DNA of 64,000 bases, from contig NC_081376.1 of NCBI RefSeq assembly GCF_030684315.1, forward strand, positions 22,363,018 to 22,427,017. The letters run 5' to 3'. A program made the translations under genes and the position numbers. This document shows positions 1 through 62,010 of the stretch, in pieces. Position 1 is the first letter of the stretch. The number at the start of each line of letters is the position of its first letter. Origin of the DNA: Stegostoma tigrinum. Lineage: Eukaryota. The notes beneath the pieces are model-generated. The model was given only the letters and a program-made list of their open reading frames with translations. It did not search any database and was not told the origin of the DNA.

Positions 1-294
1 GGCATGACCAGAAACCATCAAAAGGGCTGTCATCAAGAGGTCCAATACGGAACTCAAAGAACTTTACCTACAGCTGTAAGAATGTAGAACTTATTACCAC
101 GGACAGTGGTTAAAAGCAATCAGCATTAATAGGGAAATAAAACAAGCATATGAAGGAGAACGGAACACAGGATAATGGTGATAGACATAGAAGAGAAAAA
201 ACATGGGTGGAAACTTGAACAGAGCACAAATACCAACATGGACTCAGAGATAATGGGAACTGCAGATGCTGGGGAATTCCAAGATAATAAAATG

Positions 295-2560: not shown

Positions 2561-10613
<8,053 letters not shown>

Positions 10614-14384: not shown

Positions 14385-16085
14385 AATCATAGAGTCATAG
14401 GGCACAGAAACAGACCCCTCAGTCCAACCAGTTCATGCTGAACATAATCCCAACTAAACTAGTCCCATTTGCTTGCTTCTGGCCGATATCCCTCCAAACC
14501 TTTGCCATTCATATATCCATCCAAATGTCTTTTAAACATTGTAATTGGACCTGCATCCACCACTTCCTCAGGAAGTTCATTCCAAATGCAAACGACCCTC
14601 TGTGTTTGAAATTTGCCTCTTGCCTTCTTTTGAAATCTCTTTCCTCTCATCTGCAAAAAGTGTGTGCCCTAGGCTTGAGGTTCCCCATCTTAGGGAAAGG
14701 ACAATGACCATCAGCTCTATATCTGTCACTATTTTATAAACTTCAATTTGGTCACTTATCAAACTCCTACGCTCCAGTGAAAGATATTCCAGCCTCTACA
14801 GCCTTTCCTTATAACTCAAACCTTCCACACCCAGCAACATCCTGATAAATCTCTTCTGAACCCTCTCCAGCTTGATAATATCATTCCTATAACTGGGTGA
14901 CTAAATGGGAGACAATATTCCAGAAGAGGCCTCAGCAATGTCTTGTACTAACCTCAAAATAACATCCCAACTCCTACACTCAAAGGCCAAGCGGCTTTGG
15001 GGAGGTGATAGTCTAGTTGTATTATTGTTTGACCATTAATCTAAAGACCCAGATAACGTTCTGGGGACCTGGATTCAAATCACATCATGGCAGATAGTAG
15101 AATTTGAATTTAATAAATGTCTGAAATTAAGAATCTAATGATTACCGTGAATCCATTGTCAATTGTCAGAAAAATCCATCTGGTTCACTAATGTCCCTTA
15201 GGGAAGGAAATTGCCATCCTTACCTGGCCTGGCCTACATGTTGACTCCAGACCCACAGCAATATGGTTGACTCTCATCTGCCTTCCGGGCAATTAGGAAT
15301 GGACAATAATGCTGCCTATCCTGTAGCACACTCATCCCAAGAATGAGTTTTTTAAAAATCCTGACTATGTGTGATACGAACTTTAGAGAATTATGTACCT
15401 GCACCCCTACTTCCCCCCGTTCAACAATGCTACCCAAGAACCTACCATTAATTAAGGTCTAGCCTTGTTTGTTGCACCAAAAGCAGCACCTCACATTTAT
15501 CTGGATTGAACTCCATCTGCCATTTTTCAGTCCAATGACCCATGTAATCAAGATCCTTTTGTAATCTTGGAAAACTTTCTTCACTGTTTACAATGTCACT
15601 AATTTTGATGTCATCCACAAACTTACCAACCATGCCTTCTACTTCCTCAGCCTAATCATTTATAAAAATGACAAACAAAAGAGAACCACAACCAATCCCT
15701 GTGGAACACTACTAGTCACAAACCTCCATTCGAAAAGCAATCCTCCATCATTATTCTCTGTCTCCTGCCGTTAAGCCAATTATGTATCCAATTGGCAAGG
15801 TCATCCTGAATCCCATGTGACCTAACTTCACTAATTAGTCTACCGTGTGGAAATTTGTCAAAGGCTTCACTAAATTCCAAAGAAACAATGTCTACTGCAC
15901 TGCCATCATCAACCTTTTTGGTAACTTCCTCAAGAAAAATCAAATGTTTGAGAGACACGATTTTCCTCGCATAAAGCCATGCTGACTATCCCTAGTCAAT
16001 TTTTGCCTCTCTAAATGTCATAAATCCTGTCTTTTATAATCACCTCCAACAATTTACCCATAACCGCAGTCAGACTCACAGGTCT
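14385..16085 (-). mobile_element. CR1-type LINE 3' portion, decayed, split by a SINE
   Basis: ORF pieces FLEEVTKKVDDGSAVDIVSLEFSEAFDKFPHGRL, KFVDDIKI, WQMEFNPDKCEVL, FQTQRVVCIWNELPEEVV. Confidence 0.88.
15000..15350 (+). mobile_element. Older tRNA-derived SINE interrupting a CR1 (related copies ~11020-11350 +, ~21450-21620 -, ~28540-28865 -, ~56610-56825 -)
   Basis: Shared core catctggttcactaatgtcccttagggaaggaaattgccatccttacctggcctggcctacatg. Confidence 0.65.
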
Positions 16086-16584
16086 GATCTGGTAGGATGT
16101 AATCCAAATACGAATATAAATCATACCCATGTGCCCTACCCATTTCACATATTGCAAAAACATTCTAATAACTCAGCGTTGGGCTCACTTGTTCAAGATT
16201 TCTGTATCCCTCTAATTGTGGGCTGTAATGCCTCTCAAATTTTAATCATTCCACTAGTAGCCAGAGTTTCTGTTGCTGAGGTACTAAGATCTAGAATTTC
16301 TCCTTACGAACCACACTTTTCTGCAGTAATACAATCCTTAAAGACATCTTCCTCACCAGCTTAAGTATTTAACATAGGTCAGTGTCAAATTTTGCAAAGT
16401 TGCTTGGTACCTTTGTCAGTAGCATTAAATCAATGTTCTTGTTATGATTCTAAACTTTAAAAAAAAGCCTTTTCTAATCTTAAGTATAGACTAAAATTCA
16501 AACAAGCTATGCTGTAAGCTTTGAATAGGTAGACAAGTGTAATTTGTAGCAAATCATCCCTTTGCCTAAGTCCTCATTTATATT

Positions 16585-17093
16585 TCATAGAATCAGAATC
16601 CTGGAGTGCGGAAACAGGCTATTCAACCCAACATGTCCATACCGCCCCTTTGAAGACCATCCCATCTAGACCTATTCCTCCATCCCTGCATTTCCCAGGT
16701 CTAATCCAGCTAACCTAAACACCCTGGGCACTATCGGCATTTTAGCATGGCCAATCCACTTAACCTGCACATCTTTGAACTGTGGGAAGAAACTGGATCA
16801 CCCGGAGGAAACCCACACAGACATGGGGAGAATGTGCAAACTCCACAGACAGAGTCATCCGTGGCTGGAATTGAACCTGTGTCCCTAGCGCTGTGAGATC
16901 ACAGTGCTAACCACTGAGCCACCATGCCACCCTAAACTGCACATCTTTGTATTGTAGGGAGAAAGCAGAGCACCCAGAGGAAACCCACACAGACACAGGG
17001 AGAATGTACAAACTCCACACAGGCAGTCACCCTTCAGTGGAATCGAACCCAGGTCCCTGGTGCTGTCAGGCAGCAGTGCTAACCACCATGCCT
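16585..17093 (-). mobile_element. Two tandem HE1/V-SINE-like SINEs (second 3'-truncated)
   Basis: Two tRNA-like heads ending at ~16932 and ~17093, each with the aaactccacacag core. Confidence 0.8.
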
Positions 17094-17636
17094 TAAATCC
17101 CAATAAATCAGTAATCTCAAAGAAGAAATCTTTAATACATGTGGGGCTTGTCCCTCGAAAGTGCAGCATTACAAGCACAAACTCATTATATTGCTGAAAA
17201 CACCAACAGACTTATTTTATACATTGTATCCAGTGATGCAAGATAACAATTGTAAGATATGAAAACATGACAAACAGGAGTGAAAGAAATCAGAGGATGA
17301 TTTAGTATGTATTCAGGTAATCTTAGTTACACAGTGAGCTTGATTTAAATTTTTTTTAAAAAGCATTTTCGAAACATAAGGACTGAAGCTGAATACAAAG
17401 CATTTGTTTTAGATAGTCATAGACGCGGTATTTCCAGAATTTAAGTTTTTAGTGTTTACAATTTACTTTTTGTTTCAAAGAATATTGTTATAATTCCTCT
17501 TATTATTCTTTGTTTGTAGTGCATTTACATTTTTCATTTTGTAATTCTTTCCAAGCTGGGTCTCATCTCCAGTCAGAATCTCATAAAAGACCAAATTTTG
17601 AATCTTTTATTTTTGCTTGAGGGAGTATTTAGGTTC

Positions 17637-17835
17637 AGAAACTAAGTTGCTGGAAAAGCTCAGCAGGTCTGGCAGCATCTGTGAAGGGAAAAAAACAGAA
17701 TTAACGTTTCGGGTTCAGTGGTCCTTCCTCAGAACTTCTGAGGAAGGGTCACTGGACATAAAACGTTTAGTCTATTTTCCAGCAACTTTGTTTTTGTTCC
17801 TGAATCACAGCATCTGCAGTTCTTTCGGTTTTTAT
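17637..17835. mobile_element. Hairpin mini-element, family 2, 15-bp TSD
   Basis: ...ccttcctcagaa c ttctgaggaagg... inverted centre at ~17735; TSD ggagtatttaggttc at 17622-17636 and 17836-17850. Confidence 0.85.
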
Positions 17836-19488
17836 GGAGTATTTAGGTTCTTGGTTTCAAACCGCTTGTAAAAGTCAACAGTTCTTCAGGCCTCAAGTAT
17901 CAGCATAGTTTTCTGAGCTGAGCTTTCTGAAATGGACTTGAACCAACAACCAACTTAAGTCTAACTGATTAAACCAGCAGCTGGGAACAGTTCCAGATTT
18001 TTCCTTTAACATTCTTCCAACAGTTCACTGCCTGTTCAAAAGCTGGTACCTCTCCACCCTCAAAGTATTAATTCAGGGGCCTGCAACCAGAATTGTCCAA
18101 TCATACACCACTATAGATGTTATGACAATTCTCAATAAATGCAAACAGCTTGAAGATCCCAACCTATCCACAACGTATTTCCAATTTGTTGACAAGACAA
18201 ACAATATCCTCCGTATCTAGTCTTTTAGGCTGGTGGGCCTGCAATCACTGCAGGTAAGTACTTGCTTATATTCTTGCATGCAATGTTTCTGTCTGTTCCT
18301 ATATCCATATTGATTGTTCTATGATCACTTCATTTTGATCAAGTGTACTAGAGTTCTTGACGCTTTGACCATATGCTGTTCTACTAGTAAGTTGTGACTA
18401 GTGATAATTAATTTTCTAATATGAGAGGAAGCAAGGATGTTTTCTAGACACTCTACTCACATTTCTTGGTACATTTTAAATGATGTTCTTTTCATTGACA
18501 TTGCAGCTACAAATCTTTGCCTAGATCAACAATATCTGTTGTAGACAGCTGCACAATCAAAGGTGACTGGCCACATGAATGAAGACAGTTTGTGAGCTGT
18601 AACACAAGAATTCCAAACACTTTGAGCAGGTAGGTACTGAAAAGCTCAAAACTCGGGTAGCTGTTTTGCTGACTACCATAGGAGGAACTGCTCCAGACTG
18701 CCAGATACTATGCAACATTGCAGCATTCAAAATAAGAACTCTGTACCATGGTTTATTATACAGTTTATGAAAGACATTACTTCTTATCCAAATTAGTGTT
18801 TATGTACAAAATGGACTGGTCAACTATCTTTTATTACTGGTAAAGAGCTGTGATTTACTGCTGTTCTTATTCATATGTTTACACTCAAATGATCACAGCA
18901 AGCTATTTGATGATTTCCCCTTACTCCTTCAAAGCTGTAAATCCTAAATTAACAATAATATCTTTCAATATGGGAAGATAATGCAAATGTTTCCAACCTG
19001 ACATTCTCAGGGTCTAATTCCACTAACAAAAAAATTGTGAAAATGAGTAAGAATGACCTGTGCAGTGTAAAACTACGACACAGGAAGTTCACAATGCTTT
19101 TCCTGAATCACCCAGAACTGAACATTTGGAAAGAAAAGTGTGTCTAATGCTCACCTAAACGTACAAAAGGTAATTTTTTTTTATATTGTATACCAGGTAT
19201 CCTCTGAACATTTTGTTGAAATAGGCCTGTCCAGATTTCATATTCTGGCTTTCCCCAATAGCAATAAACAGACACTACACAACAGTTCAATACATCAATA
19301 CAAATTGTAGTACAACTTTATATAGTACAAAGGAAACAAAAGTAATCATCTTTGCACTGCAACGTTTTGTTCTACAAACATATTATTTGGTGTTTTCATT
19401 CAACTGATAAGGTGAGAAGTTTCAAATAAATAAACAGATTTTGAAGCTACTTTCTTGCATCAATCGTGATGCAGTAATACCATTATAC

Positions 19489-25700: not shown

Positions 25701-28700
25701 TACTCATAAGCATGAACTCATAAGTGATTCAAGCTGGCATCATATCTCAACATTACCTTCACTTGCTTTGAAAGATTGATTGAAAGACCCGGTTACATCC
25801 AAGAAAGCCAATGTTGCTATTTCAGTGAAATATGAAACAGCCAATCAGAACTTGTACAAGTAAATGTTACTAATCCTCAATGAATTTGTTGACGTACAAT
25901 GTGTACAGAATACAGACCTTAAGGTAAGTGAGAGATATGGTCCACAGATGTTTATGATCACATTGGAAATCAGTGCCATCAGACTGACCTTAAAACTATA
26001 ATCCCAAAGAAAACTTCAGTTTTTAAAAAATTGCCACAATCTAACTGTATGTCAGAAAATACGAAGGAGGTCATTTGACCTCCTGCACATCTCTACTTGC
26101 GAGAAACACCGAAAAAACAACTAGTGGAAGGGAGCAAAAGGTAAAACAGATTAGCTTAGAACAGCTTTCCTTTCTATCTCACTACCATAAAGATAGCAAA
26201 ACAAAGGAAGGAGTTTATTTGGGAAAGAAATAACGGTGATTGCAAGGGCAGACAGAATCAGCAAAAAATTGTATCCTGTGCAATTATTTGGCATGTTAGA
26301 GTTAGTAAAGTTACTACTGATGTTTTAGTTTATTTCTTCTAGATGTTTATATTACTAATTTCAGCCTCGCTGTACAAATTAGTCACAGGAAACAGTCAGA
26401 CCAGACATAAAAATGGATATATGAATGAATTCATAAATGATTAACACATCTGATCTGTAATCCAGTTAAAGGGAATTGTGTACTTACCAAATGACAACAT
26501 TGCTCATTATTGTCGATCCAATCAAAGCTTCTGCCTCCCCTTTGATTTCACTGAAAGCCAGAATCATCTCATTGGGTGGGACCAACTGCATACGTCGTTC
26601 ACTCCTAACCACAAAAATTCAGGCAGGAAATCACAAAACTGCTATTACCTCACAAGCGACACTTTTTCCTCATCTCCTTATATAGCCTCTCCGCTTCATA
26701 AAGGCAATACTCACCAGCTCGGGCTCTCTTCATGGGCCTTTACCAGTATAGGGTTTGAAAAAGGAGTTATGAATGTAATTAGTCTGTGGTTTCCTGAATT
26801 TTGCTTGATTGCATTACTTATGTCTCCACTATAAGACTTGGATCACTTGTCTTGAACAAGTATTAACTTTTGTGACATCATTCAAATATGGAGTCAGAAA
26901 GTAGCCACAGAAGAATATAAGAAATGTTAAAGTCCATTTTATCTCAGTCATCAGGGCCTAAAAAATATTATAACAAGATTGGAATATAGCTGACAACATT
27001 TCCAGTCACATTTCTGGCTAACTGCTGACAATTAAACTGCATTCTAAGGAATCAAAAATATTTCTGTTTAGAAATTAAAATCTAGATTATTTGCTTATTA
27101 CAACTTTCACAATTGCCTTGCTGTGAAATTATTCTTCTGCCACAGAAAAAGTTCTGTTTATGTATCCTTCCTATTTCGCTTTATTGTGCTGGAATTGTTT
27201 TGTATTTGGAGGATACTGAGTAATATTCTTCATTCCAGCTAAGGAAACAAAAATCTGGGACTGAATAAATAATTGTGATCTTTTGCTCAGAGAAAGTACC
27301 TGGTGTTACAGACTTAACCAGTAAAATATTGAGAGTAATTCTATCAAATCCGGTTTTAACATCCCGGAGTCTTTTACATTTAAAACATAAAATCAAAAGT
27401 TTTCCAGCAGCTTATCTTTTAAAAATAAGTCAAAAGTTCTGCAATGGTTTTCTTCACGTCTCATTTATTTTCTCTTATTTAAAGGTTTGACTTTGAATCA
27501 CACTCTAGGTAGGTGTTGACTTTATCCAAGAAGGGTTTTGAATCTGTATTTATATTCCCATGGAACAACCTGATCAACATTACAGGGCCCAGGTTTAGTA
27601 GACGTTACTCCTTGCTGTTACTTGAGAAGGGGTATAATAATGAAATGTTATCTACTGTCTGCCTTCGGCATTGAGCTTAATGCTAAGTCAAAAATGTTAA
27701 AGGAAGACAATGAATCAAGATTCAATTTGGGGTATGCACAGATGACATGTTTGAGGGTCTTATTACTAATAAGGCTCCTATTTAAATTATGACACACCTC
27801 TCTTGGTTCTGAGGAAGGGTCACTGGACCCAAAATGTTAACTGTATTTTTTTTCTTCACAGATGCTGCCAGAGCTTTTCCAGCAACTTTGTTTTTGAAAC
27901 CAACAAGTAACATTCTGAAGAAAAAGCTATCGGATTCTGACCTTCCTTCTTTGGATAAGATGTTCAATTCTATGTGCTGACTCTGGAGTGTGCCACAAGA
28001 GCAGACCAGCCTCCTTCCAGGTAACCCAAGCACTGCATTAATATCTCCTGTCTGCAGCAGGGTGTGTTCCAAACAGTTTCTGTCCACAGAGTGCAATACC
28101 CTTTAGAAACAAAACACAGGGACAATAGAAAACAAAAACAATCAGCAGCTTTGACCGAGTTGCAATTTTAATTGGGTCCATTACTAGGAATGTTCTAATA
28201 ATCTGGGTAAAAATAATTTCTTACATATACACAAAAAGAATTTGATGAAGTACATAAGATGCCTGTGATGGGAAGAGAAAATCTCACCACTTTCAACACT
28301 TTGGTATATAGTTAATACTGAAAACAAATCAGTTTAGGTACAGGGCAAAGCTCCCCATGCATTAAACACATCAAATGGCAAGTACAAGCGCAGGTTAGAT
28401 ATACAGTAAAACTCTTTTCAGTGCTTCAATACAGTAGTTTAAGCATAAGTGAAGTAATTTTGTATTCAAGAGAAGTTAGACGTACTAATAAAATTCATCA
28501 CAATGCGGGGGATGCAGGGGTCGCTGGCAAGCTGCATTTGATGGTTGTCCCTATTGCACTTGAACTGACATTTCAGAAGGCATTTAAGAATCAACACATT
28601 TCTCTGAGTTTGATTCGAATATAGCCTAGATCAGGTAAAAACGGCAGATTTCCTTTTCTAAAGAACAAGAGTGAAACAAATGGGCTTTTTTATACAACAA

Positions 28701-31700: not shown

Positions 31701-34700
31701 CTCCATTACAATGGGTACTTCCTGGAATTTTGTTCAACAAAACAGAGAAATGTTTAAGTACTGTAAACTGCAAGAAGGGCAATGTAGGACTCCTGAAGAA
31801 TGTAGACAAGTTTGTGGAATGGGAAGATTGGTGGGAAATGGGGTTCATTGCAGAAAAGTGTGAAGTGATGCATTCTGACAGGAAGAACATTAAAAGACAA
31901 AACAGGGGGAGGGTGGGGTACAATTCTAAAAGAGGTGCAGGAGTACAGGAACCTACGTGGATGTGTGTACAGATCACTGAAGGTGGCAGACTAGGTTGAG
32001 AGAGCAATTAATAAAGTGTATAGTATTAGGTTTTATTCATAGGTCCACTGAGTACAAGGCAAAGGAGATGATTTTGAACTTTCGTAAGACAATTGTTGGA
32101 TCTCATCTTGAGTACTGTGTACAGCTTTTAGCGCTACATTTATAGGAAGGATGTGAATGCGCTGTGGACAGTGCAAAAGTGATTTACAAGAATGGTTCCA
32201 GGATGCAAGCAATACAAGGATAAATTGAAGAAGTTGGGACTGTTCTCCTTGGAAGGAAGAAATCTAAGAGGAGATCTGGTAGAGGTATTCAAAATCATCA
32301 GCGCGCTTGACGAAGTATGTTGAGAGAAATGTTTCCCCGTTTTTTAAAGAGTCAAACAGAGCGCACATATTTAAAGTGATATGCAAAAGGAGCAAATATA
32401 ATCCATGATGAAAGCTTTTTCACATAGTGAGCAATTACAGTAAGAAATGTACTGCCTTGAAGTGTGGCAAAGACAGATTCATTTGAGGGATTCAATGGTT
32501 ACCGGAAGATTACTTAGAAATAAATTACGTGCAAGGCAATGGGGATAAAGTGGGAAATTGGCAGTAGGTGATGATATTTGAAGAGCCAGTGTACGTACAA
32601 TGGGCCAAATAACCTTCTGCACCATAATAATTCTGCATTTACCAGCGTCATTCCTAGATCCAACTACAGAGCTGATCAATATTCTGAATGGGTTGATAAA
32701 TCAGGTTGTTTCATTGGTATCTCAGTCACTTGCAAAGAAACATTACCTTTTATAATCTGAAATTGGCCCGTGTTTACTAACCTGTATCTTGGAGATTAGC
32801 TGCAACGTTGGCCTCTGTAGCTTTTGTTGTAACTGGTTGCCAAGAAGAGAAGACAAAGCATCATTATTCTCCTACAGAAAAAAACCCCACAAAACTTAGT
32901 TAGAAGACTCTATCATGAATAAAGAATTGTTATAGACAATCTGTTCGATAGTATAAAATTGTCAAACTTTAGGTGGGTCAGCAGTCTCTTAACTCTGTTC
33001 AAAAACAAATGAAAAGTAAAAGTTGCCAAGTTGCTACCTAAACACAAATATTTTTTGTCAATGCCAGATCCTACCCAAGGCATTTGGGATAGTATTCAAG
33101 GAGTCTAAGAAACTACCATATGAAGTTTGAAGATGTAACACATTAATAATTGTATTTTCTTTGTTTAGGCGGTAATACAGAATGACTGATAGAAACTGCT
33201 GCCGCAGCAGTAGAGTCAGATCAGGAGTACCAAACAAACTAAAAAAGGTGCGCTAGGTTGCGGTTGGAGTTGTTGGTTGGATCGCCGAGCTGACTGGTTT
33301 TCATGCAAATGTTTCATCTCCCTTCTAGGTGACATTGTCAGTGCTCTATAGCCTTCACTGTAATGCTGTTGCTCTGTCCCGCTCCGTCACAGTGAGCAAT
33401 CTTCATTTCGGTTTTGTACTGTAGTGCTATGTAGATGGGGTCTATTTCAACGTTTGCTAATTGCATCAGTGTTGAAAACCAGGCCTCTAGGAATTCTTGT
33501 GCTTGTCTTTGTCTTGCTTGACCGAGTACTGGAACTTTGTCTCAGTCAAATTGATGTTCTTTTATGTTGGACTGTATTGAAATGAGGGAGAGTTGGTTGT
33601 GCTATTTTGATGCAAGTTATTGTCAATGTATCCTGGTAGCAAATTTTCTTCCCATCAGTCCTTTGCTGCATGATATTTTATATATCACGTTTGTCCTGGT
33701 CATTGTGGGGATGAGGTCTTCTGTCTTTGAGAGTAACTGGCAAAGTGTGGCTGTTGGTTTGTGTGCTGTCCTTATTCCAAGAGGGTGTAGGCGTCTTGTA
33801 GTCAGTTCTTATGTGTTTTTAACGTAGGGAAGGGCAGCCAGTGTCTTGGGGCGTTCAGTGTCTTCTTTGTGTTATTTGTTTGCCAGACATCGGTAGATGA
33901 AGCTGTTAAGGTAACTATTGTTTGCAAACACTCTATACAGGTGTTCCTCTTTGTTTCTGCACAGCTCCAGAGCGTTGTGGTGGGTCATCACTAGTTTAAA
34001 CAGAGTCTTGACACAGCTCTGTTTGTGGATGCTGGGGTGGTTACTGCTGTAATTCAGGAATTGGTCTGTGTGTGTAGTCTTTCTGTATACGCTGGTAAGA
34101 AATTCCTGATTGTTTGTTCATTCCACTAGTTACATCTAGAAACAGGAGTTGATTGTTGTCTTCTTCCATGGTGAACCTGATCCCGGTGAATATATTGTTA
34201 ATAAGGTGGTGTGTTTCTTCTAACTTTGCTCGTTTAATGATCAGGAACGTATCGTCCACGTATCTGACCCCTAGTTTAGGCTGGTTGGGGAGGGCTTTGC
34301 GTAACAACTTTCACTATGAGCCCTGAGATGGGTGAAAACATGGGTGCTCCATTAATTTGTTCATATACCTGGCCACTGAATACAAAGTGTGTGATAAGGC
34401 AGAGATCTAGTAATTTCAGCATGTTGTCCTTGTTGATGATTTCATTGGAGGTGTGTGTTTTTGGATTGTCCAGTAATATGGCTAGTGTCTCTTTTGCTAG
34501 TGTCATGTTGACGGAGGTGAATAGTGCTGTAATGTCAAAGGATACCATCATTTCCTCATTGTCGATTTTTATGTTCCTGATGTTGTCCAGTAATTCCTGT
34601 TTTGAGTGTAAGGAGTGGGTCGATCCATTGGTGAGGTGTTTAAGTCTCTTTTGTAACTCCATGGCTAGCTTGTGTGTCAGTGCGCCCGGCAGGGAAACTA

Positions 34701-37700
34701 TGGGTCTGAGGGGGCTGTCAGGTTTGTGTACTTTGGGTATTCCATAGAATCAACAGGGTGTTTGACGCATCGGGTTTCACTTTTAGGAAGTCTATTCCAA
34801 TTTTGTAATGTTGTAATTCCTTTCATGTAGAGGTGAGTCTGTTCCCTATCTGTGGTGTGAGGTCTGACTCCCTCTGTTGGTATCTGCAAATAGTTTAATG
34901 CAGCCCGATTTCTTCTTCACAACCATCAAGCAGCCTGTGTCTGCTGGTAAGATTATGATGTTCCTGTCCTTCTTTTGTCCTTTGAGGGCTTTCTTTCTGA
35001 TGTGTTGATTGTGTTTGCCTGGCTTCTCCTGTTCAGCATAGGGTTTATGGTTTGATGGAATGTTTATTATATTTCGTCTGAGTCCATTAGATTTCAGTGT
35101 AGTCACGAGCATCGCCAGGAAGTCCGTTTTCTTGACGTCCTTATAATTATAGTTGAATCCCTGTATTAGGACAGTTTCCTCGGTGTCTGTAAGGGGTCTA
35201 TCTAATAAATTTCTTATCCACGTGTCTGGTTTGTTCTTGTCATTACTGTGCATCAGTTTCATCAGTTTTTCTTGTAGTGAGAGTCTCTTCTTGGTTCTGG
35301 TCCTGTTTTGCTTAACCCTGATGGCCTCTTCAAGAGTTGTGATCATATATTCGTTGGTCAAGTTCAAGTATAGAGATTTCTGGTGCAAAATTTCTCATTT
35401 GTATTTATGGAGGCAGTCATGGGCGTCCATTATCATAACTTATAGCACCCTGCAGATGTTTTTCCAGCTGTTTTTCTTGTTTATGGGCTGTTAAATGGGG
35501 GTGGGGGTGGTTTTATTCAACGATGTGAGGTAGTACCTGGTTTGAGGCATTCTAGCAGAAAACGGAGTTGCTCACAGATAGCACTCAGCCGACTGGCATA
35601 GGTTTCCCATTTTCGGACTTGTTTGAGTGTGTTTCACCTGTAGGTGTTTAACGAAGATCTGTAGCTCAGGTTGCAGTTGGATTTATTGGTTGGCTTGCCG
35701 AAACGACTGGTTTTCATGCAAATGTTTTGTCTCCCTTCTAGGTGACATCGTCTCCTAAAAATGAAACCTGATGGGTCAAATGCCCCCCGATTCAACAGAC
35801 TACACAAAGTACACAAACCTGACATCCCCCTCAGACCCATAGTTTTCCTGCCAGACAAACCAACACACAAGCTAGCCAAGGAGTAACAACAGAGACTGAA
35901 ACGCCTCACCAATGGATTGAGCCACTCCATACGCTCAGCACAGGAAGTGCTGGACAACATCATGAACATAAAAAATCGACAAGGTGGAAATGATGGTATC
36001 CTTTGACATTACAGCACTATTCACCTCTATCGACATGACATTGGCCACATTGCTGGACAATCCGAAAATACAAACCTCCAATGAAACTATCAAAAAGGAC
36101 AACATGCTAAAATTACTAGATCTATGCCTTACCACACACTTCGTCTTTAATGGCCAGGTATGTGAACAAATTAATAGAACATGTATGGGTCCACCCACCT
36201 CGGGGCTCATAAGGGATGCTGTAATGCAAAGACTGGAGCACACAGCACTCCCCCAGATCCAGCCTAAACTATGGGTTAGCTACATGGACAACACTTTCCT
36301 GATCATTAAATGAGCAAAGTTAGAAGAAACACACCGCTTTATTAACAGCATATTCACCAGGATCAGGTTCGCCATGGAAGAAGAGAACAACAATCAACTC
36401 AAGTTTCCAGACGTAATGGTGGAATGAAGAACAACAGGGAATTCCTTACCAGCCTATACAGAAAGACTACACACAGACCAAATCCTGAATTACAACAGTA
36501 ACCACCCCAGCATCCACAAACAGCTCCAAAGAGCTGTGTCAAGACTCAGTTCTGAGGAAAGGTCACCAGACCTGAAACAAAAACTCTGTTTTTTCGTTCA
36601 CAAATACCGTCAGACCTTTTGAGCTTTTCCAGCAACTTTGTTTTTATGTCAAGACTCTGTTTAAACCAGCGATAACTCACCACAACACTCCGGAGCTGTG
36701 CAAAAACGAAGAGGAATACCTGTACAGAGTGTTTGCAAACAATAGTTATCCTAACAGCTTCATCCGCTGATGCTTGGCAAACAAATAATATAAAGAAGAC
36801 ACAGTACATCTCAACACACTGGCCACCCTCCCCTACGTTAAAAACACATCAGAACTGACTACAAGACTCCTACACCCTCTTGGAATAAGGATAGCACACA
36901 AACCAACAGCCACACTTCACCATTACTCTCAAAGACAAAAGACTCCATCCCCACAACGAGCAGGACAAATGTGATATATAAAATACCATGCAGTAAACTG
37001 CAAGAAACACTACATAGGACAGCCAGGCAGGAAACTTGCCACCAGGATACATGAACACCAACTTGCAGCAAAATAGCACAACCAATCTCCCTCATTTCAA
37101 CACACTCCAACATAGAAGAACATCAATTTGACTGGGATGAAGTTACCGTACTAGGTCAAGCAAGACAAAGAGAAGCACGAGAATTCCTAAAGGCCCGGTT
37201 TTCAAACACCAAAGCAATTAACAAACATGTTAAAATAGTAACCAAAAGAGCTGTGGATGCTATAAATCAGGAACAAAAACAAAGTTGCTAGAAAAGCTCA
37301 GTAGGTCTGGCAGCGTCTGTGAAGAAGAAAGGGTTCTGAGGAATGGTCACTGGACCTGAAACATTAACTTTTTTTCTCCTTCACAGATGCTGCCAGACCT
37401 GCTGAGCTTTTCCAGCAATTTTGTTTTTGTTCCATGTTAACATTGACCCCATCTACATGCCACTGTGGTACAAAACCAGAAAAATGACTGCCCAGACCAT
37501 ATAAATTCAGAATGGGACAGAACAAGTGCTTCAAAGAGGGCTACACAGCACTGATGATGTCCCCTAGAAGGGAGATGAAATGTTTGCATGAAAACCAGTC
37601 AGCTCGGCGAACCAACCAACAACTCCAGTTGATCTAGCTCTTGTCAGATAGCTGCATACCTCTACTTTGCAATTTTGCTTGACCAACAACACTCGTTGAG

Positions 37701-40700: not shown

Positions 40701-43700
40701 CATCATTAGGAAGTCTGTGGTTATTCAAGGTCCACTCTACAAGCTCATCTTTAAACACTTCATTATCAGTGAGTTTGGGTTTTGTGGATTCTTCTCTCTC
40801 ACTTTTTCTCTCTTTTTCTGGACTTGATTTAATTTTCTGAGCATCAATACCAATATTCGAGGGGCACAGTGAGTCCAGCTGTGAAGTATCTGCATCAGAT
40901 ACAGCAATACCATCCTCCTGACTGTTAAAAAGTAATAATGTGTTGCTGAGCTCTCCCTCAGACTTGGGAAAGCCTTTTACAGGATTGCTCTGGTCACGAG
41001 TCAATTTCCTAGACCTTCCCCTACCACCATTTCTGCATTTTCCCAAGTGGCTGTGAATCACTGCATCCAGATCCACTTGTCGCTGACAGTTGGTCATGCG
41101 TCGAGTTGTTCGTACGTAGTACTCAACAGGGAAGAGAAGGCCCTCGACAAGGGTACAAGAGTTCAGTGGGGTCTCTTCCGAAGCTTCAGCTGCAGCAGTA
41201 CTTTCCTGAAGACAATCTGGATTTAACACTGCTGACTTATTTGCAAGATTGCTCTCAGAAGCTTCAATGAGATCCTCAGAGCAGTTTTTCATTACTTGCT
41301 GTTGTTGGGCATCTTCCGTCAGGACGTTGAGGTCTCTTGAACTGAAAGCTTTATTTTCACAAGCAGACACTCCTATAGACTTATCACCAGGACTGCAGTA
41401 AACCGAGCCATTCACAGTGCTGCCCAAGGATAAGATCAAACAATCGCCTTCCACCTCCTGCACTCCATTTTTGAATGATTTAAACTGTTCTTTACCTTGA
41501 GAAGAATCAAGGAATGTTCTATGCTCCACAATTTCCTTTACATCCCCATATTCTAATGTAGAGGCATTTGTATCCCTGTCAAAGTTGTAAGATCTTACAG
41601 GCTCTTTGTAAAGAGGTGAATCCAGTTCCTCTATTTCTTTATCACAGGATTTTCCATCAGCAGCTAGAAATTCATTCTGCTCACTGGCTGCTTCCTTTCT
41701 CAGCATTTCACATGACCTCCTTTTTTTCAGCTTCAGACGACTGTGAACTTGACTGTTTTTCTTTGCATTGGGGATTGTTTGCACAACGGGGGAAAGGGTG
41801 GGATCTGTTGAAGGGTCTTCAACTCTTTCAAATGTGCTTGCCAAAGCCACATTTGGGCTACTGATGACTTCTATGATTTCCGGTTCAAGATTAAAACTCA
41901 CAGCTGATCTCTTCTCTTTGCTTTCTTCTACTGGGACTCGGTTTCTCTGACAAGAAGAGCTTGACTGACATACATCCAAAAATGATGAGGCCTCACCTTT
42001 ATAAAAACAAAAAGAAATTCAGGAAATACATTAGGGCCTGAATTTATTTTTATTGTGGGAGGGGGAGGAGAGGAGGCAGCTAGATACACAATCTGAATAC
42101 AAAGGCAAGCGGCACCAAAACATATTTTTGACAACACTGATGTAACCACTATAAATTTACCAAAAAGAAAAACGGTCTGAGGAATCACAGAATCCCTATG
42201 GTGTGGAAAGAGGCCATTCAGCCCATCAAGTACACATCTCCTCCTATTCCTGGGTGAATGATCTGCTAAGGTGGTTCATCTTATATGAGATGGCTAATAC
42301 CAGTGCCATTTTCAAAGCAGAGATAACAGAAACTGCAAATGCTGCAGAATCCAAGATAACGAGGTGTGGAGCTGGATGAACACAGCAAGCCGAGCAGCAT
42401 CTTAGAGGCAGGAAAGCTGATGTTTTAGGCCTAGACCCTTTATCAGTTTTTCTGATGAAGGGTCTAGGCCCGAAACGTCAGCCTTCTTGCTCCTAAGATG
42501 CTGCTCGGCCTGCTGTGTTCATCCAGCTCCACACCTTGTATCTCCCATTTACAAATCACTTGGTGATAACAGAGAGCAAGTTAACTTGCAAATGTCACTT
42601 GCACAGAGTGCAAGCATTGCCTAGTGAGATGTCATCTGACAGGTTTCATTTCCTATTGGAAACCCCACCACTGAGGCCACTATGATTGAGAAGAAGTCAA
42701 GTGATCCACCCAAAGTTTAAGTAATTTGCTGAAAACCTACCAGTCTTCAATGGAGTTATGCTCTGCTCTTCCAACAGATGATTCTGGTGCATTATGGTGC
42801 TTTTAACATGATTCCGCACCCGTTCAGCTTTCTGAGCACGCTAGTGGCAAAAAAATGAAGGAAAAAGAAAAGAGTTTAATATTAGACTGTCCAACATAAA
42901 GTCAGCAAGAGGGATGCCTTGACTATGGGTTCTAATTCTTTAGTGGGACTTAAACCTACAGCCTCTAACACAGAAGTACATGTCATTTCCAAAAAGTTTC
43001 TATTTCACCGCAGGCTTAATGTATGTTCAGCGCTTTAACTAGAGCTTGATACCACACCCACAGCCTGACACGATATGCTGCTTGACATGATATATTGTAA
43101 TTAAATCCCAAATCATTTTAGTGTAAAGATTTCTCCTCAGCCACATCAACAGAACATAGAACATAGGACAACATAGAACACAGCGCAGAATAGGGCCTTC
43201 GGCCCTCGATGTTGCACCAGCCTATCAACTAATCTAAGCCCCTCCCCCTACATTATCCCATAGACAACCACTTAACTATCTAAATAGTCAGGATAGACAT
43301 TGAAAATGCTCAAAGTATACAACAGGTATAATCTGGACTGATAGTTCATCTTTGGAACACTGACTGCACTTCAAATGACTAGTCTCCCTTCTCAAAGGCT
43401 AAGCTACCAGAATGAAGAACCCAAACCAGAATATCAACTATTATGCTAATTCCAGCCTAACTTATTGTACGTTTTCAATTTTTAGTTTCAATTCACTTTT
43501 CTTTAGTTAAGTACTTTATGAGCTGTAAAACACATTGAGGTGTTGTGAGCTGCTGAAAGCCTTTAAATTTATTGGCTTCTCTACCTCCCAAGGAAGATGA
43601 GAACTGTTGAATGAACAAGAGGATCTGCTCCAACACATTCACCTTGTCATCATGGAAGTTGCATGATATAAAAGTGCTTGAATTACTGCGAATCGAAGCA

Positions 43701-44526: not shown

Positions 44527-59238
<14,712 letters not shown>

Positions 59239-61504
59239 GACATGGCTTTACTTCAGAGCATTAAGAGTACAGGTAAGATGATCAGTAGTACCTTGTGCTA
59301 GTGAAGCACTTAGTGAAAATCAGCATATACTAGGTTTGAAAACAAGATTTGATTTAATATTTAAGGTGCTCTTGTTTCATTCCAGCCCCGTCTGAATTCT
59401 TGATCTCCAAGGTCGATTTGAGACCCCATTATTATTTTTTTTTCGTCTGTGGACCAAATCCTGAAGTTTTTATTTCCTTTGTGATTTGCTTGACTCTCTT
59501 CTGACTCCTGTAGAAATATTGATTTCTCTTTAAAGCATTTTCCTTTTGAAAACTGTTGATCTGTTCTCATCCCTCTAACCAGAGTAAAACAATTTACAAC
59601 TAGATCTCCGCTAGATTTTAAAGAGGTGCACTGAGCTAGGAGTTACTGAATAGCCAGTGCTACTGATTAAGAAGGGTGCCAGAAACATTAGGACTTGACC
59701 ATTCTCTCAACTTTCCATTCTGACAGTACTAAGTTGTCACAGGTGCCATCGTCCAAATATGGCATTAAACCAAGGCCCTGTCTTTGTGTCAATAGATGTT
59801 CAAGATCCTAGATATTGTGACATGATATGTATGTAAATAGTTTTGTTTTCCTGACCAACAACCTTCATCAACTATGACTGGTCATCCATGATCCAGTATC
59901 TGTCTATACAAAATGAACATATAATATATAGCTATGTAATGTTGTCTGGTGCATTGTAACTAAATATAAAGCATTCTAGGAAATTTATGATTAAATACAT
60001 GTATTTAGTGACTGATGTTCCAGTGCTTATCTGACTCAGCATTTCTACCCTATCCCACCCCAAACTAATTTTGAAAAATCACTTATTCACAACTGCAAAT
60101 TGTTCTTTCAGTTTTTTCCAACATTTGTTTGGAGGCAGTGTTTGATTTGTCTTGAAAGTTTAGTATAGGGCTGCTATATTTTACAAGCCAACAATGCTTA
60201 AGGACCTAGCTGGATTCATTTGTTCTCAAATTTGCTCATGTACAATTCTGCTTGCTGTGCATAATCTAAATATATATCCAGTGAGATAAGACATGTCGTC
60301 TGTTGATAGTTGATAATTTAATCAATTCTTAACAGTCTTTTAGGATTGTGCAATCCTAACTCTGTCACCATGTTTTTTGTTCTTTGTATAAACCAGCCAA
60401 ACTCTTTCATTTAATCCTGGTTTTTAAACTCACTCTTACTGAGCGTCCATCATTCTACATTTAATTTTACTTTTCTTGTTGCAGAATCCAGTTAATTGGG
60501 AACCTGAAAGTGAACAGCTGGAAAAACAGGGCCCAAATTCTGCCCGAGCACTTCAAAGTGATGGAGTGGCTCTAACATGGAGAAGCTCAAGTCTTCCAAA
60601 TGATAAATGTGTTCAACTTTGGTCTGATGAAGATTTGCTGCTGCTCCACACTGGGAGTGATTCTCTTTGTCTACGTAGCCTTCAGTTCGATGCTAAAGCA
60701 TAAATAGGCTCTGTATAATACCAGAGAAAATTCAGACCCTAAAGAATATACTTATTTGACTAAATGTTAAATCACTGATCCTCCTACACACTTTAACTGG
60801 ATTTAATCCCTTTCTAATTTGGAAAAGACTTCAATTGTGACTGAATGTAAAGATTGTACGAGTTCTGTCTTTAGAATTCACTTACACTAGGTATAATGTT
60901 GGTCTGAAATGCCCTTCTGATTAACTGGTACTTACTATTTGCGAAGTTCGTGACTTTAGTCTGCTTGACTACCAACACCAGTTGGAATTCTCACTGATTC
61001 AGTTATTACTCGGATCTCTAGCGGGCAGGATTCTTGGAAAACAGTGAGTAGTGCAACATGCAGCATTATGTCAGGGCTTTGGCTGTTTCTTGGAACCTGG
61101 TGAGAACTAAGGGGTGGATAGGTGTATAGTAGGGCGTCAGCCCTCCTTTCGAAATAGCAGTCATGCTTGGTTACCTAAAATGTAACTAGGTTGTATGACA
61201 GAACTTTCATTTAAGACCAATTCCTCAGGCAAGGCATGTTGCCTGATGAAATAGTATGACCCAAGGGAATTGACACCACGGGGAAACTAAAGGATAGGCA
61301 GCATTTTGTTTGAGCTTTAACTAACAAATAAAATTTAGTTTTTCAGGCTACTGCAGTGAGCATGCTATGTGATAAATTTAACCCTACTTACAGTTATGTG
61401 CAGTATCGTCTAGCATAGCTATGTGCACTTTAATCCTTCTAACTAAAGATGTAACAGTCCAGATTTGGGGATCTTGAGGCAAGCAAATAGAGTACAAGTC
61501 AGTG

Positions 61505-61730
61505 ATAATAAAGTGTGAAGCTGGATGAACACAGCAGGCCAAGCAGCATCTCAGGAGCACAAAAGCTGACGTTTCGGGCCTAGACCCTTCATCAGAGAGC
61601 TCTCTGATGAAGGGTCTAGGCCCGAAACGTCAGCTTTTGTGCTCCTGAGATGCTGCTTGGCCTGCTGTGTTCATCCAGCTTCACACTTTATTATCTTGGA
61701 ATCTCCAGCATCTGCAGTTCCCATTATCTC
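61505..61730. mobile_element. Hairpin mini-element, family 1 (inverted Penelope termini), 15-bp TSD
   Basis: Perfect 192-bp palindrome 61504-61695; TSD gagtacaagtcagtg at 61490-61504 and 61731-61745; arm matches the PLE end at 9331-9425. Confidence 0.9.
61604..61631 (+). ncRNA. Minimal hammerhead-ribozyme-like motif (antisense twin at 61568-61595; other intact copies at 58542-58569 and 42452-42479)
   Basis: CUGAUGA-A-GGGU(CUAG)GCCC-GAAAC-GUC; PLE termini are known to carry minimal HHRs with a vestigial stem III; stem I is weak here (2 bp); activity untested. Confidence 0.6.
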
Positions 61731-62010
61731 GAGTACAAGTCAGTGTTGGTTTTGGAGCTCCCTGGTTATTTGATTGTTCTTGATCCCCACCCATGGCTAA
61801 TGGATGTTAAGGAATTGGGTAGCCTTTTGGCATCTACTAGGGCAACCTGCCTCACTCACTTGAATTGGTCAGTGGTCCATAAATTGACTTTGTGGAAGGC
61901 ATCATGTAATCCCATAATTCTGAGAGTACAGGTCATCTCACTGCTAGGGGTAAGAATTATACAAGATTCTGAACTACAGGGTTACATTTAAGCTGTCTGT
62001 CTGTTTATAT

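Follow-up and report, generated by a model that had tools for sequence, protein, structure and literature searches.

Inverted insertions of endonuclease-bearing Penelope-like elements (PLEs) carry head-to-head pseudo-long terminal repeats (pLTRs), a palindrome at the inverted junction, target-site duplications (TSDs) of variable length and a one-sided tail of 30-40 nt (PMC3846280, PMC8557442, PMC2377424). The 30-40-nt tail at one end is a known PLE trait (PMC3846280, PMC8557442, PMC11167929), and the origin of the inverted repeats and of the one-sided tail is stated to be open (PMC8557442, PMC11167929). Metazoan PLEs harbour minimal hammerhead ribozymes that act weakly and as dimers, and in Schistosoma opposite-strand hammerhead pairs lie 100-700 bp apart (PMC4209133). 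The protein of a lizard PLE, the Poseidon-type PAc of Anolis, cuts and extends both DNA strands in vitro; two internal start sites of reverse transcriptase (RT) bound its tail, the RNA 5' end sets the length of the product, and uncleaved RNA is the substrate (PMC11167929). Here we analyse a 64,000-nucleotide stretch of Stegostoma tigrinum DNA (contig NC_081376.1, forward-strand positions 22,363,018 to 22,427,017; hereafter the window), which contains at 61490-61745 a hairpin in which the standard inverted PLE insertion is reduced to its minimum, namely TSD, inverted pLTR, pLTR plus tail, TSD, without a coding region. Each of its components is known, the nearest prior remark in the consulted text being that on the Schistosoma motif pairs, and the surprise is therefore limited. 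The shark copies differ from the described endonuclease-bearing insertions in having neither an open reading frame (ORF) nor captured DNA between the pLTRs, and in a junction that, in two families, coincides with the hammerhead 5' edge. The focal element (positions are those of the window) is built as follows:

61490..61504, plus strand: left TSD, 14-15 bp, the final base of which doubles as the first base of the palindrome
61504..61595, minus strand: tail-less pLTR arm, inverted, reaching at its 3' end the first TTATC (putative RT start site 1) and hammerhead position C3 at 61595
61596..61603: self-complementary 8-nt junction AGAGCTCT, the centre of the hairpin
61604..61631, plus strand: minimal type I hammerhead motif, GUC triplet at 61629-61631
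61604..61695, plus strand: tail-bearing, NSRE1-like pLTR arm, matching the other arm at 92/92 sites
61696..61730, plus strand: PLE tail, 35 nt, ending just past the second TTATC (putative RT start site 2)
61731..61745, plus strand: right TSD

An initial annotation made from the sequence had claimed a perfect 192-bp palindrome, a 35-nt tail on one arm only and a 15-bp TSD, and its description was borne out. The scan of the whole window returned two perfect palindromes of at least 16 bp, this one (61504-61695) and a 16-bp one at 59992; the tail occupies 61696-61730; and the two TSD copies are identical at 15/15 positions, a score reached by 0/398 random flank pairs, their length being 14 or 15 bp because the palindrome begins on the last TSD base. 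The hairpin folds with -202.6 kcal/mol (z -30), and 0/200 shuffles fold as well. A fold-back artefact of the assembly could account for the lack of any mismatch between the arms, but given the perfect flanking TSD, the one-sided tail and the diverged siblings of the same layout described below we find such an artefact scarcely credible. The 0 differences in 96 pairs allow an arm divergence of up to 3.1%; the focal copy is among the youngest in the window, and conversion inside the hairpin could mask its age. The recent activity proposed earlier is thus plausible from the identity of the arms, but it is bounded only loosely (<=3.1% divergence).

The arms of the focal hairpin correspond to the pLTR of a long PLE located in the same window:

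5867..9425, both strands: long Neptune-type PLE, decayed and rearranged, with RT and GIY-YIG fragments

Identity of the focal arm to the copies in this element is 81-86% overall, with 85% over 94 nt against 9330-9423 and, for arm plus tail, 81% over 140 nt against 5867-6006. The element is itself head to head, consisting of a tailed minus arm (5867-6732) and a tail-less plus arm (6735-9425) whose 5' ends lie only ~37 codons apart in the RT. The annotation had equated the arm with the 3' end of an RT/GIY-YIG element at 9331-9425, which holds for the arm (9330-9423) but not for the tail, found on the inverted partner arm at 5867-5914. Within the endonuclease region, 8688-8951 is 81% identical to a whale shark protein (P0001) which maps over 6283-9050 and has an RVT_1 domain below and a GIY-YIG domain above cut-off; P0001 thus supplies the partner ORF, an RT with a C-terminal GIY-YIG carrying CCHH. 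A CX4CxxC linker is present in P0001 and in the frame of the window near 7860, and a CX2-5CxxC linker between RT and endonuclease occurs in Neptune and Nematis and is missing from Poseidon (PMC8557442). Judged from this linker and the vertebrate host, the partner is probably a PLE of the Neptune type. A Pfam search of five PLE fragments and two PALB2 frames of the window returned only sub-threshold RVT_1, in a Poseidon frame. The PLE origin of the focal hairpin is in our view almost certain. As the annotation had held, retroposition rather than transposition as a miniature inverted-repeat transposable element (MITE) is supported too and, by inference, mobilisation by a PLE. A MITE moved by a DNA transposase, with incidental likeness to PLEs, would also be short, non-coding, strongly inverted-repeated and present in many copies; that the TSD length varies from 11 to 17 bp, that the ends are asymmetric with a tail on one side only, that the arms are the termini of an RT/GIY-YIG element and that a single-arm copy with TSDs exists (36549) leave this explanation very little room.

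The long element shows additional features. An unrelated repeat at 7157-7445 interrupts its RT, and its plus arm contains internal duplications (6925-7164 with 8005-8238, and 7460-8009 with 8238-8785). Both body-linked arms have, ~24 nt upstream of the hammerhead core, a pyrimidine tract ending in TTTCAG (9298-9307 and about 6030-6040), which from its sequence resembles a splice acceptor; in D. virilis an intron ends at helix I (PMC4209133).

The arm is also related to repeats that were named earlier in another orectolobiform shark. NSRE1 and NSRE2 are unclassified repeats from a 2006 survey of nurse shark bacterial artificial chromosomes (PMC1513397), whose consulted text gives no class, hairpin, ribozyme or link between the two. 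Against the focal arms the two NSRE1 probe oligos show 2 and 3 mismatches in 24 nt; they find 6 and 7 matches in the window, as compared with 0 in 100 shuffles. The one NSRE2 oligo tried, out of two, matches the endonuclease region of the long PLE in both arms. Because of these matches, and as far as probe oligos can tell, NSRE1 appears to be this pLTR and NSRE2 part of the endonuclease region of the same PLE, which gives a class to two shark repeats that had long remained without one. The annotation had left open whether the family was already described: the arm does match a published probe, but NSRE1 was published without a class. Densities are likewise similar, with 17 copies per about 170 kb in the nurse shark and 8 family-A loci per 64 kb here, that is, one per 10 kb in the nurse shark clone and about one per 8 kb in our window. 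Copies of this kind thus seem to be very common and may show how PLEs insert. In the literature covered, to which Dfam, Repbase and subscription journals do not belong, NSRE1 and NSRE2 are nowhere identified as PLE parts. Within the same limits, and with the reserve that those sources may hold the family, no ORF-less pLTR hairpin folding at the hammerhead edge is described, and the accessible parts of PMC8969392 and PMC6155905 contain nothing on ORF-less pLTR hairpins.

Profile searches of the single 64-kb window identified two related families, A (8 loci, 14 arms, the focal and long elements included) and B (5 loci, 7 arms), the latter absent from the annotation, and a covariance model of 15 arms added no convincing copies to those known in the window. 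The remaining loci of the two families and, last, a Poseidon-type element, with other start positions used in the text in brackets, are:

58404..58651, minus strand: hairpin A, centre AGCCCT, left tail with an internal deletion, 17-bp TSD with 1 mismatch, in the last intron of a DCTN5-like gene (58421 or 58443)
42306..42558, minus strand: older hairpin A, centre TTTTT, 14-bp TSD with 2 mismatches, in a PALB2 intron (42317 or 42354)
54585..54787, plus strand: hairpin A, shortened tail arm without hammerhead, 13-bp TSD with 2 mismatches, p 0.045 (54597)
48949..49170, plus strand: diverged hairpin A, shortened tail arm beginning in helix II, no TSD found (48978)
44699..44820, minus strand: single A arm plus tail, beginning in helix II, no significant TSD (44698)
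246..294, minus strand: A tail plus about 12 nt of arm, with one variant in common with the focal copy, adjoining a 1-kb host palindrome (248)
17622..17850, plus strand: hairpin B, centre AACTT, tail on the right, perfect 15-bp TSD
37226..37443, minus strand: hairpin B, shortened tail arm, 11-bp TSD with 1 mismatch, inside a Poseidon-type PLE (37270)
36537..36661, plus strand: single B arm starting at the hammerhead 5' edge, 11-15-bp TSD (36549)
27806..27897, plus strand: single B arm starting at the hammerhead 5' edge, no significant TSD
9446..9575, plus strand: single B arm starting at the hammerhead 5' edge, no significant TSD
33255-37627, in a PALB2 intron: decayed Poseidon-type PLE outside families A and B, with two pLTRs in its minus-strand copy and a second, truncated copy in inverted orientation

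Hairpins make up 7 of the 12 short loci, and the tail is one-sided in all seven and in the long element. The sibling copies that had been listed at 42317, 44698, 48978, 54597, 58421 and 248 are all present, but they are not alike, comprising hairpins, a single arm and a tail fragment. Family B has its own hammerhead (5-bp helix II, ~4-bp helix I, GUU triplet), and no coding partner for it was found in the 64-kb window. The element at 33255-37627, assigned to the Poseidon clade from its RT motifs, carries a hammerhead-like motif of its own and two family-B insertions; a further Poseidon-type fragment is found at about 46357-46665. The family-A tail fragment at 246-294 ends where a 1-kb palindrome of host DNA begins (295-1296; arms of about 488 bp, 3 mismatches, spacer of about 25 nt, no TSD), which has the appearance of host DNA duplicated by fold-back where a PLE inserted, an assembly artefact being the rival explanation.

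The ends of the arms are the most informative feature of these copies. In the two families together, 14/21 arms stop within about 8 nt upstream of C3, five begin inside or after the hammerhead motif and two run into the PLE body, the 5' boundary in family B being set by the loss of shared sequence, with its partner outside the window. Long matches to the 3' untranslated region (UTR) that precedes the pLTR occur only beside the two body-linked arms and in 0/12 short family-A arms. A fixed 5' edge at C3 and the absence of the 3' UTR from the short A arms speak against random truncation, and the idea of the annotation that the copies might be extreme truncation products of the PLE 3' end is accordingly disfavoured. 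In the Poseidon-type element, too, the 5' pLTR (35668-35752, minus) begins at the hammerhead core, at about G5; together with the single B arms, which begin at the same hammerhead edge, this pLTR supports a model in which this edge is the 5' end of an RNA. At the opposite end, tail-less A arms terminate at TTATC or a one-base variant in 5/5 cases, and 6/7 of the tailed arms listed end near a second TTATC, the spacing in the focal copy being 33 nt. TSDs were found at 7/13 loci (15, 17, 14 and 13 bp in family A; 15, 11 and 11-15 bp in family B); the search gave nothing significant at 48978, 44698, 248, the long element, B27806 and B9446, nor for 248 plus its palindrome or for the Poseidon element. 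The fixed-length TSDs and fixed symmetrical ends of a DNA transposon are thus not seen, the TSDs ranging from 11 to 17 bp and the tail standing on one side.

We consider it somewhat probable that the hairpin is formed anew at each insertion by two-ended, two-site priming. The protein of the Neptune PLE would bind an RNA starting a few bases upstream of the hammerhead core, which could be the 5' end of the full-length PLE mRNA or a short solo-pLTR transcript; an internal promoter has been placed within the pLTR (PMC2377424). The GIY-YIG nuclease would then cut in a stagger 11-17 bp wide, the width being read from the observed TSD lengths, and both DNA ends would prime RT inside the RNA, one at the TTATC that closes the arm and the other at the TTATC that closes the tail, 33 nt beyond. 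Arm ends at both TTATC motifs are observed, and priming on two strands at two sites is what we infer from the in vitro work on the lizard Poseidon element. Both cDNAs would run off the same RNA 5' end and would be joined head to head with a few variable bases, whereas single-arm copies would arise where only one DNA end was extended. The hammerhead would be inherited within the pLTR, would mark the 5' edge of the RNA and would stay uncleaved while the element is formed. PAc has in common with the shark copies the two start sites that bound the tail, the extension of both strands and the dispensability of hammerhead cleavage (PMC11167929); it differs in its Poseidon clade and in an ORF that begins inside the hammerhead, no N-terminal match of this kind having been found for the shark Neptune pLTR. 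On the proposed mechanism, ORF-less copies would record both RT start sites, the width of the cut and the 5' end of the RNA in about 230 bp, and at the density found one genome-wide table would test two-ended priming in vivo.

The junctions bear on this proposal and on its strongest competitor. The four intact centres are all different (AGAGCTCT, AGCCCT, TTTTT and AACTT, of 8, 6, 5 and 5 nt), the three asymmetric junctions likewise differ from one another, and the gene models P0030 and P0033 pass through hairpins of a similar kind whose junctions are shorter, as deduced from their protein. Both arms of each copy share variants and 0 columns split tail-side from tail-less arms, so the arms of a copy come from one template or were homogenised later. 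These symmetric variants are equally expected if the hairpins are a self-copying non-autonomous family, in which transcription covers the whole hairpin, both sites on the 3' arm of the RNA are used for priming by the PLE protein, and the cDNAs read through the centre and anneal through their own complementarity, so that the copy is made symmetric again and inherits its centre. The preponderance of hairpins among the short loci (7/12), a focal centre that is perfectly palindromic, as annealing would favour, a likeness between the centres of 61504 (AGAGCTCT) and 58443, neither of which resembles what lies upstream of the pLTRs joined to a PLE body, and a young subfamily without a body-linked copy in the window would suit such a family. 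No two centres are identical, though, single arms have the same 5' edge, and a 94-bp RNA duplex would bury the start site at the arm end; we therefore hold self-copying to be possible but rather unlikely. Non-autonomy had also been sought in a stop codon in the pLTR frame of the young subfamily, a frame open in the body-linked copies, and was dropped for want of an N-terminal relative: among the 37 long relatives (>=780 aa, among 150 listed) none has an N-terminus like the pLTR frame (best E 0.22).

A more far-reaching version can be imagined, of which we remain doubtful. In it, the sharks would host self-propagating hairpin-RNA retroelements that borrow the Neptune protein, are primed at two ends and two sites and rebuilt palindromic at each insertion, have arisen at least twice (A and B), reach ~10^5 copies/Gb and seed introns with long double-stranded RNA, the same reaction duplicating host DNA as fold-backs (246-1296). 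Among the known systems close to the shark copies are the non-LTR retrozymes (PMC7229834, bioRxiv 10.64898/2026.07.22.740005), which in the consulted text are likewise short and non-coding, carry a type I hammerhead and have a proposed origin from and mobilisation by PLEs, but which form head-to-tail tandem arrays with mostly canonical ribozymes and circular RNAs. The shark copies are all head-to-head pairs or single arms, and the head-to-tail arrangement of the retrozymes was not found among them.

The asymmetric copies bear on a third possibility, a single priming event followed by fold-back, in which a cDNA or antisense RNA folds at the hammerhead CTGA/TCAG or at helix-I complementarity and copies itself. 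A single arm does fold with the core strand paired to the cleavage-site strand, palindromic junctions are frequent, fold-back synthesis seems to have taken place at one probable insertion site, where the 1-kb host palindrome adjoins the 248 tail, and self-priming was proposed in PMC3846280. However, fold-back from a tail-primed strand would shorten the tail-less arm, and in 3/3 asymmetric short hairpins it is the tail-bearing arm that is shortened, a count that could also come from later deletion; nor does it explain the precise stop of the second arm at TTATC. On balance fold-back seems to us improbable. When the long element is included, the tail-bearing arm is truncated further 3' in 4/4 asymmetric inverted copies (54597, 48978, 37270 and 5867-9425), and two of the tailed arms start just past the hammerhead cleavage site; the tailed cDNA may have used cleaved RNA, or the arms may have been deleted later.

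Several points weigh against the formation of each hairpin anew by two-ended priming. The sample consists of one 64-kb window with 13 loci and 7 short hairpins. The closest hairpins, 61504 and 58443, both have AG..CT centres, which could descend from one master by two small changes, and their subfamily has no body-linked copy in the window. Arm symmetry could result from conversion within the hairpin, and the asymmetric junctions may be later damage, because internal deletions exist, one of 38 nt in a B arm and one of 13 nt in 54597. Support in the arm tree is low; the tree is of descriptive use only and does not pair the arms of 58443 or those of the long element. At 6/13 loci there is no significant TSD. 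The transcription start is a deduction and the in vitro system is Poseidon, not Neptune, and self-priming on an antisense template is the explanation preferred in the consulted part of PMC3846280.

The hammerhead motifs that had been claimed for both strands were confirmed. The core CTGATGA-A-GGGTCTAGGCCC-GAAAC-GTC starts at 61604 (+) and at 61595 (-), 8 nt apart, and the focal motif consists of this core, an extra A, a 4-bp helix II, an ACGU palindrome in place of helix III, GUC and a helix I of 2 bp. It shares with the minimal hammerheads of metazoan PLEs the type I core, the extra base after A9, the G10.1-C11.1 pair, the palindromic 15.2-16.2 and the lack of helix III, and departs from them in a helix II of 4 bp (5 in family B), in the 2-bp helix I of the focal copy, as against 4-5 bp, and in the 8-nt distance between motifs (PMC4209133). 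By inspection, several B arms have a helix I of ~4 bp, and one arm of the 58404-58651 hairpin has one of 6 bp. A strict minimal-hammerhead descriptor matches 5 arms in the window as compared with a mean of 0.01 (max 1) in 100 shuffles. Rfam gave no match at gathering score anywhere in the window and, at E up to 10, no hammerhead family around the focal element; its microRNA matches there are far below cut-off and reflect the hairpin. Since such weak matches occur, pLTR hairpins can be mis-called as microRNA hairpins, as they can as MITEs. Core conservation had been set beforehand as a check: between the A and B consensuses the core is identical at 11/11 positions and the rest at 53/79 (one-sided p 0.018), and 7 of the 10 invariant columns among 15 arms are core bases, which fits selection on the motif in the source elements, as judged by comparison of arms. 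As a measure of covariation, helix pairing across arms amounts to 80% of cells, with 13-44% in slid controls, and is not significant, 103/500 shuffles reaching 80%.

These motifs do not make the copies ribozyme-terminated, as had been proposed. They lie at the centre of the hairpin, and the arms begin at the 5' end ahead of the catalytic core, with about 30 nt between that end and the GUC cleavage site; therefore hammerhead cleavage did not make the arms. The active fold costs +7.8 kcal/mol in a single arm and +64.5 in the read-through hairpin RNA, so that self-cleavage of the focal hairpin RNA is predicted to be blocked; with its 2-bp helix I, the hammerhead of the focal copy is probably inactive according to these models. 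With 8 nt between them and complementary to each other, the two motifs of the focal pair cannot form a dimer. In the 58404-58651 hairpin the centre (58536-58541), read on the minus strand, forms by inspection a 6-bp helix I with the bases after GUC; the original 5' end of the source RNA may survive in it.

The window contains two host genes:

19492-44022, minus strand: PALB2 exons
49840-59238, plus strand: exons of the DCTN5-like gene

Over 200 aa, the frame at 40729-41328 shows 100% identity to PALB2 of Stegostoma tigrinum and 91% to that of whale shark; the exons of the second gene resemble those of DCTN5. The two genes lie head to head on either side of a CpG-rich stretch at 44-45 kb, within which the single arm 44698 lies. 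The hairpins 42354, 54597 and 58443 are intronic, and 48978 probably is; since copies sit in introns of PALB2 and the DCTN5-like gene, their pre-mRNAs should carry duplexes of about 90 bp. The focal hairpin begins ~2.3 kb past the DCTN5-like stop codon, beyond two poly(A)-like signals, and for this reason is probably outside the transcript. The 16-bp perfect palindrome at 59992-60007 adjoins a poly(A)-like signal. Several other repeat families occupy 14393-17086, 45248-48126 and 56647-57960, among them fragments with a likeness to long interspersed elements of the CR1 type.

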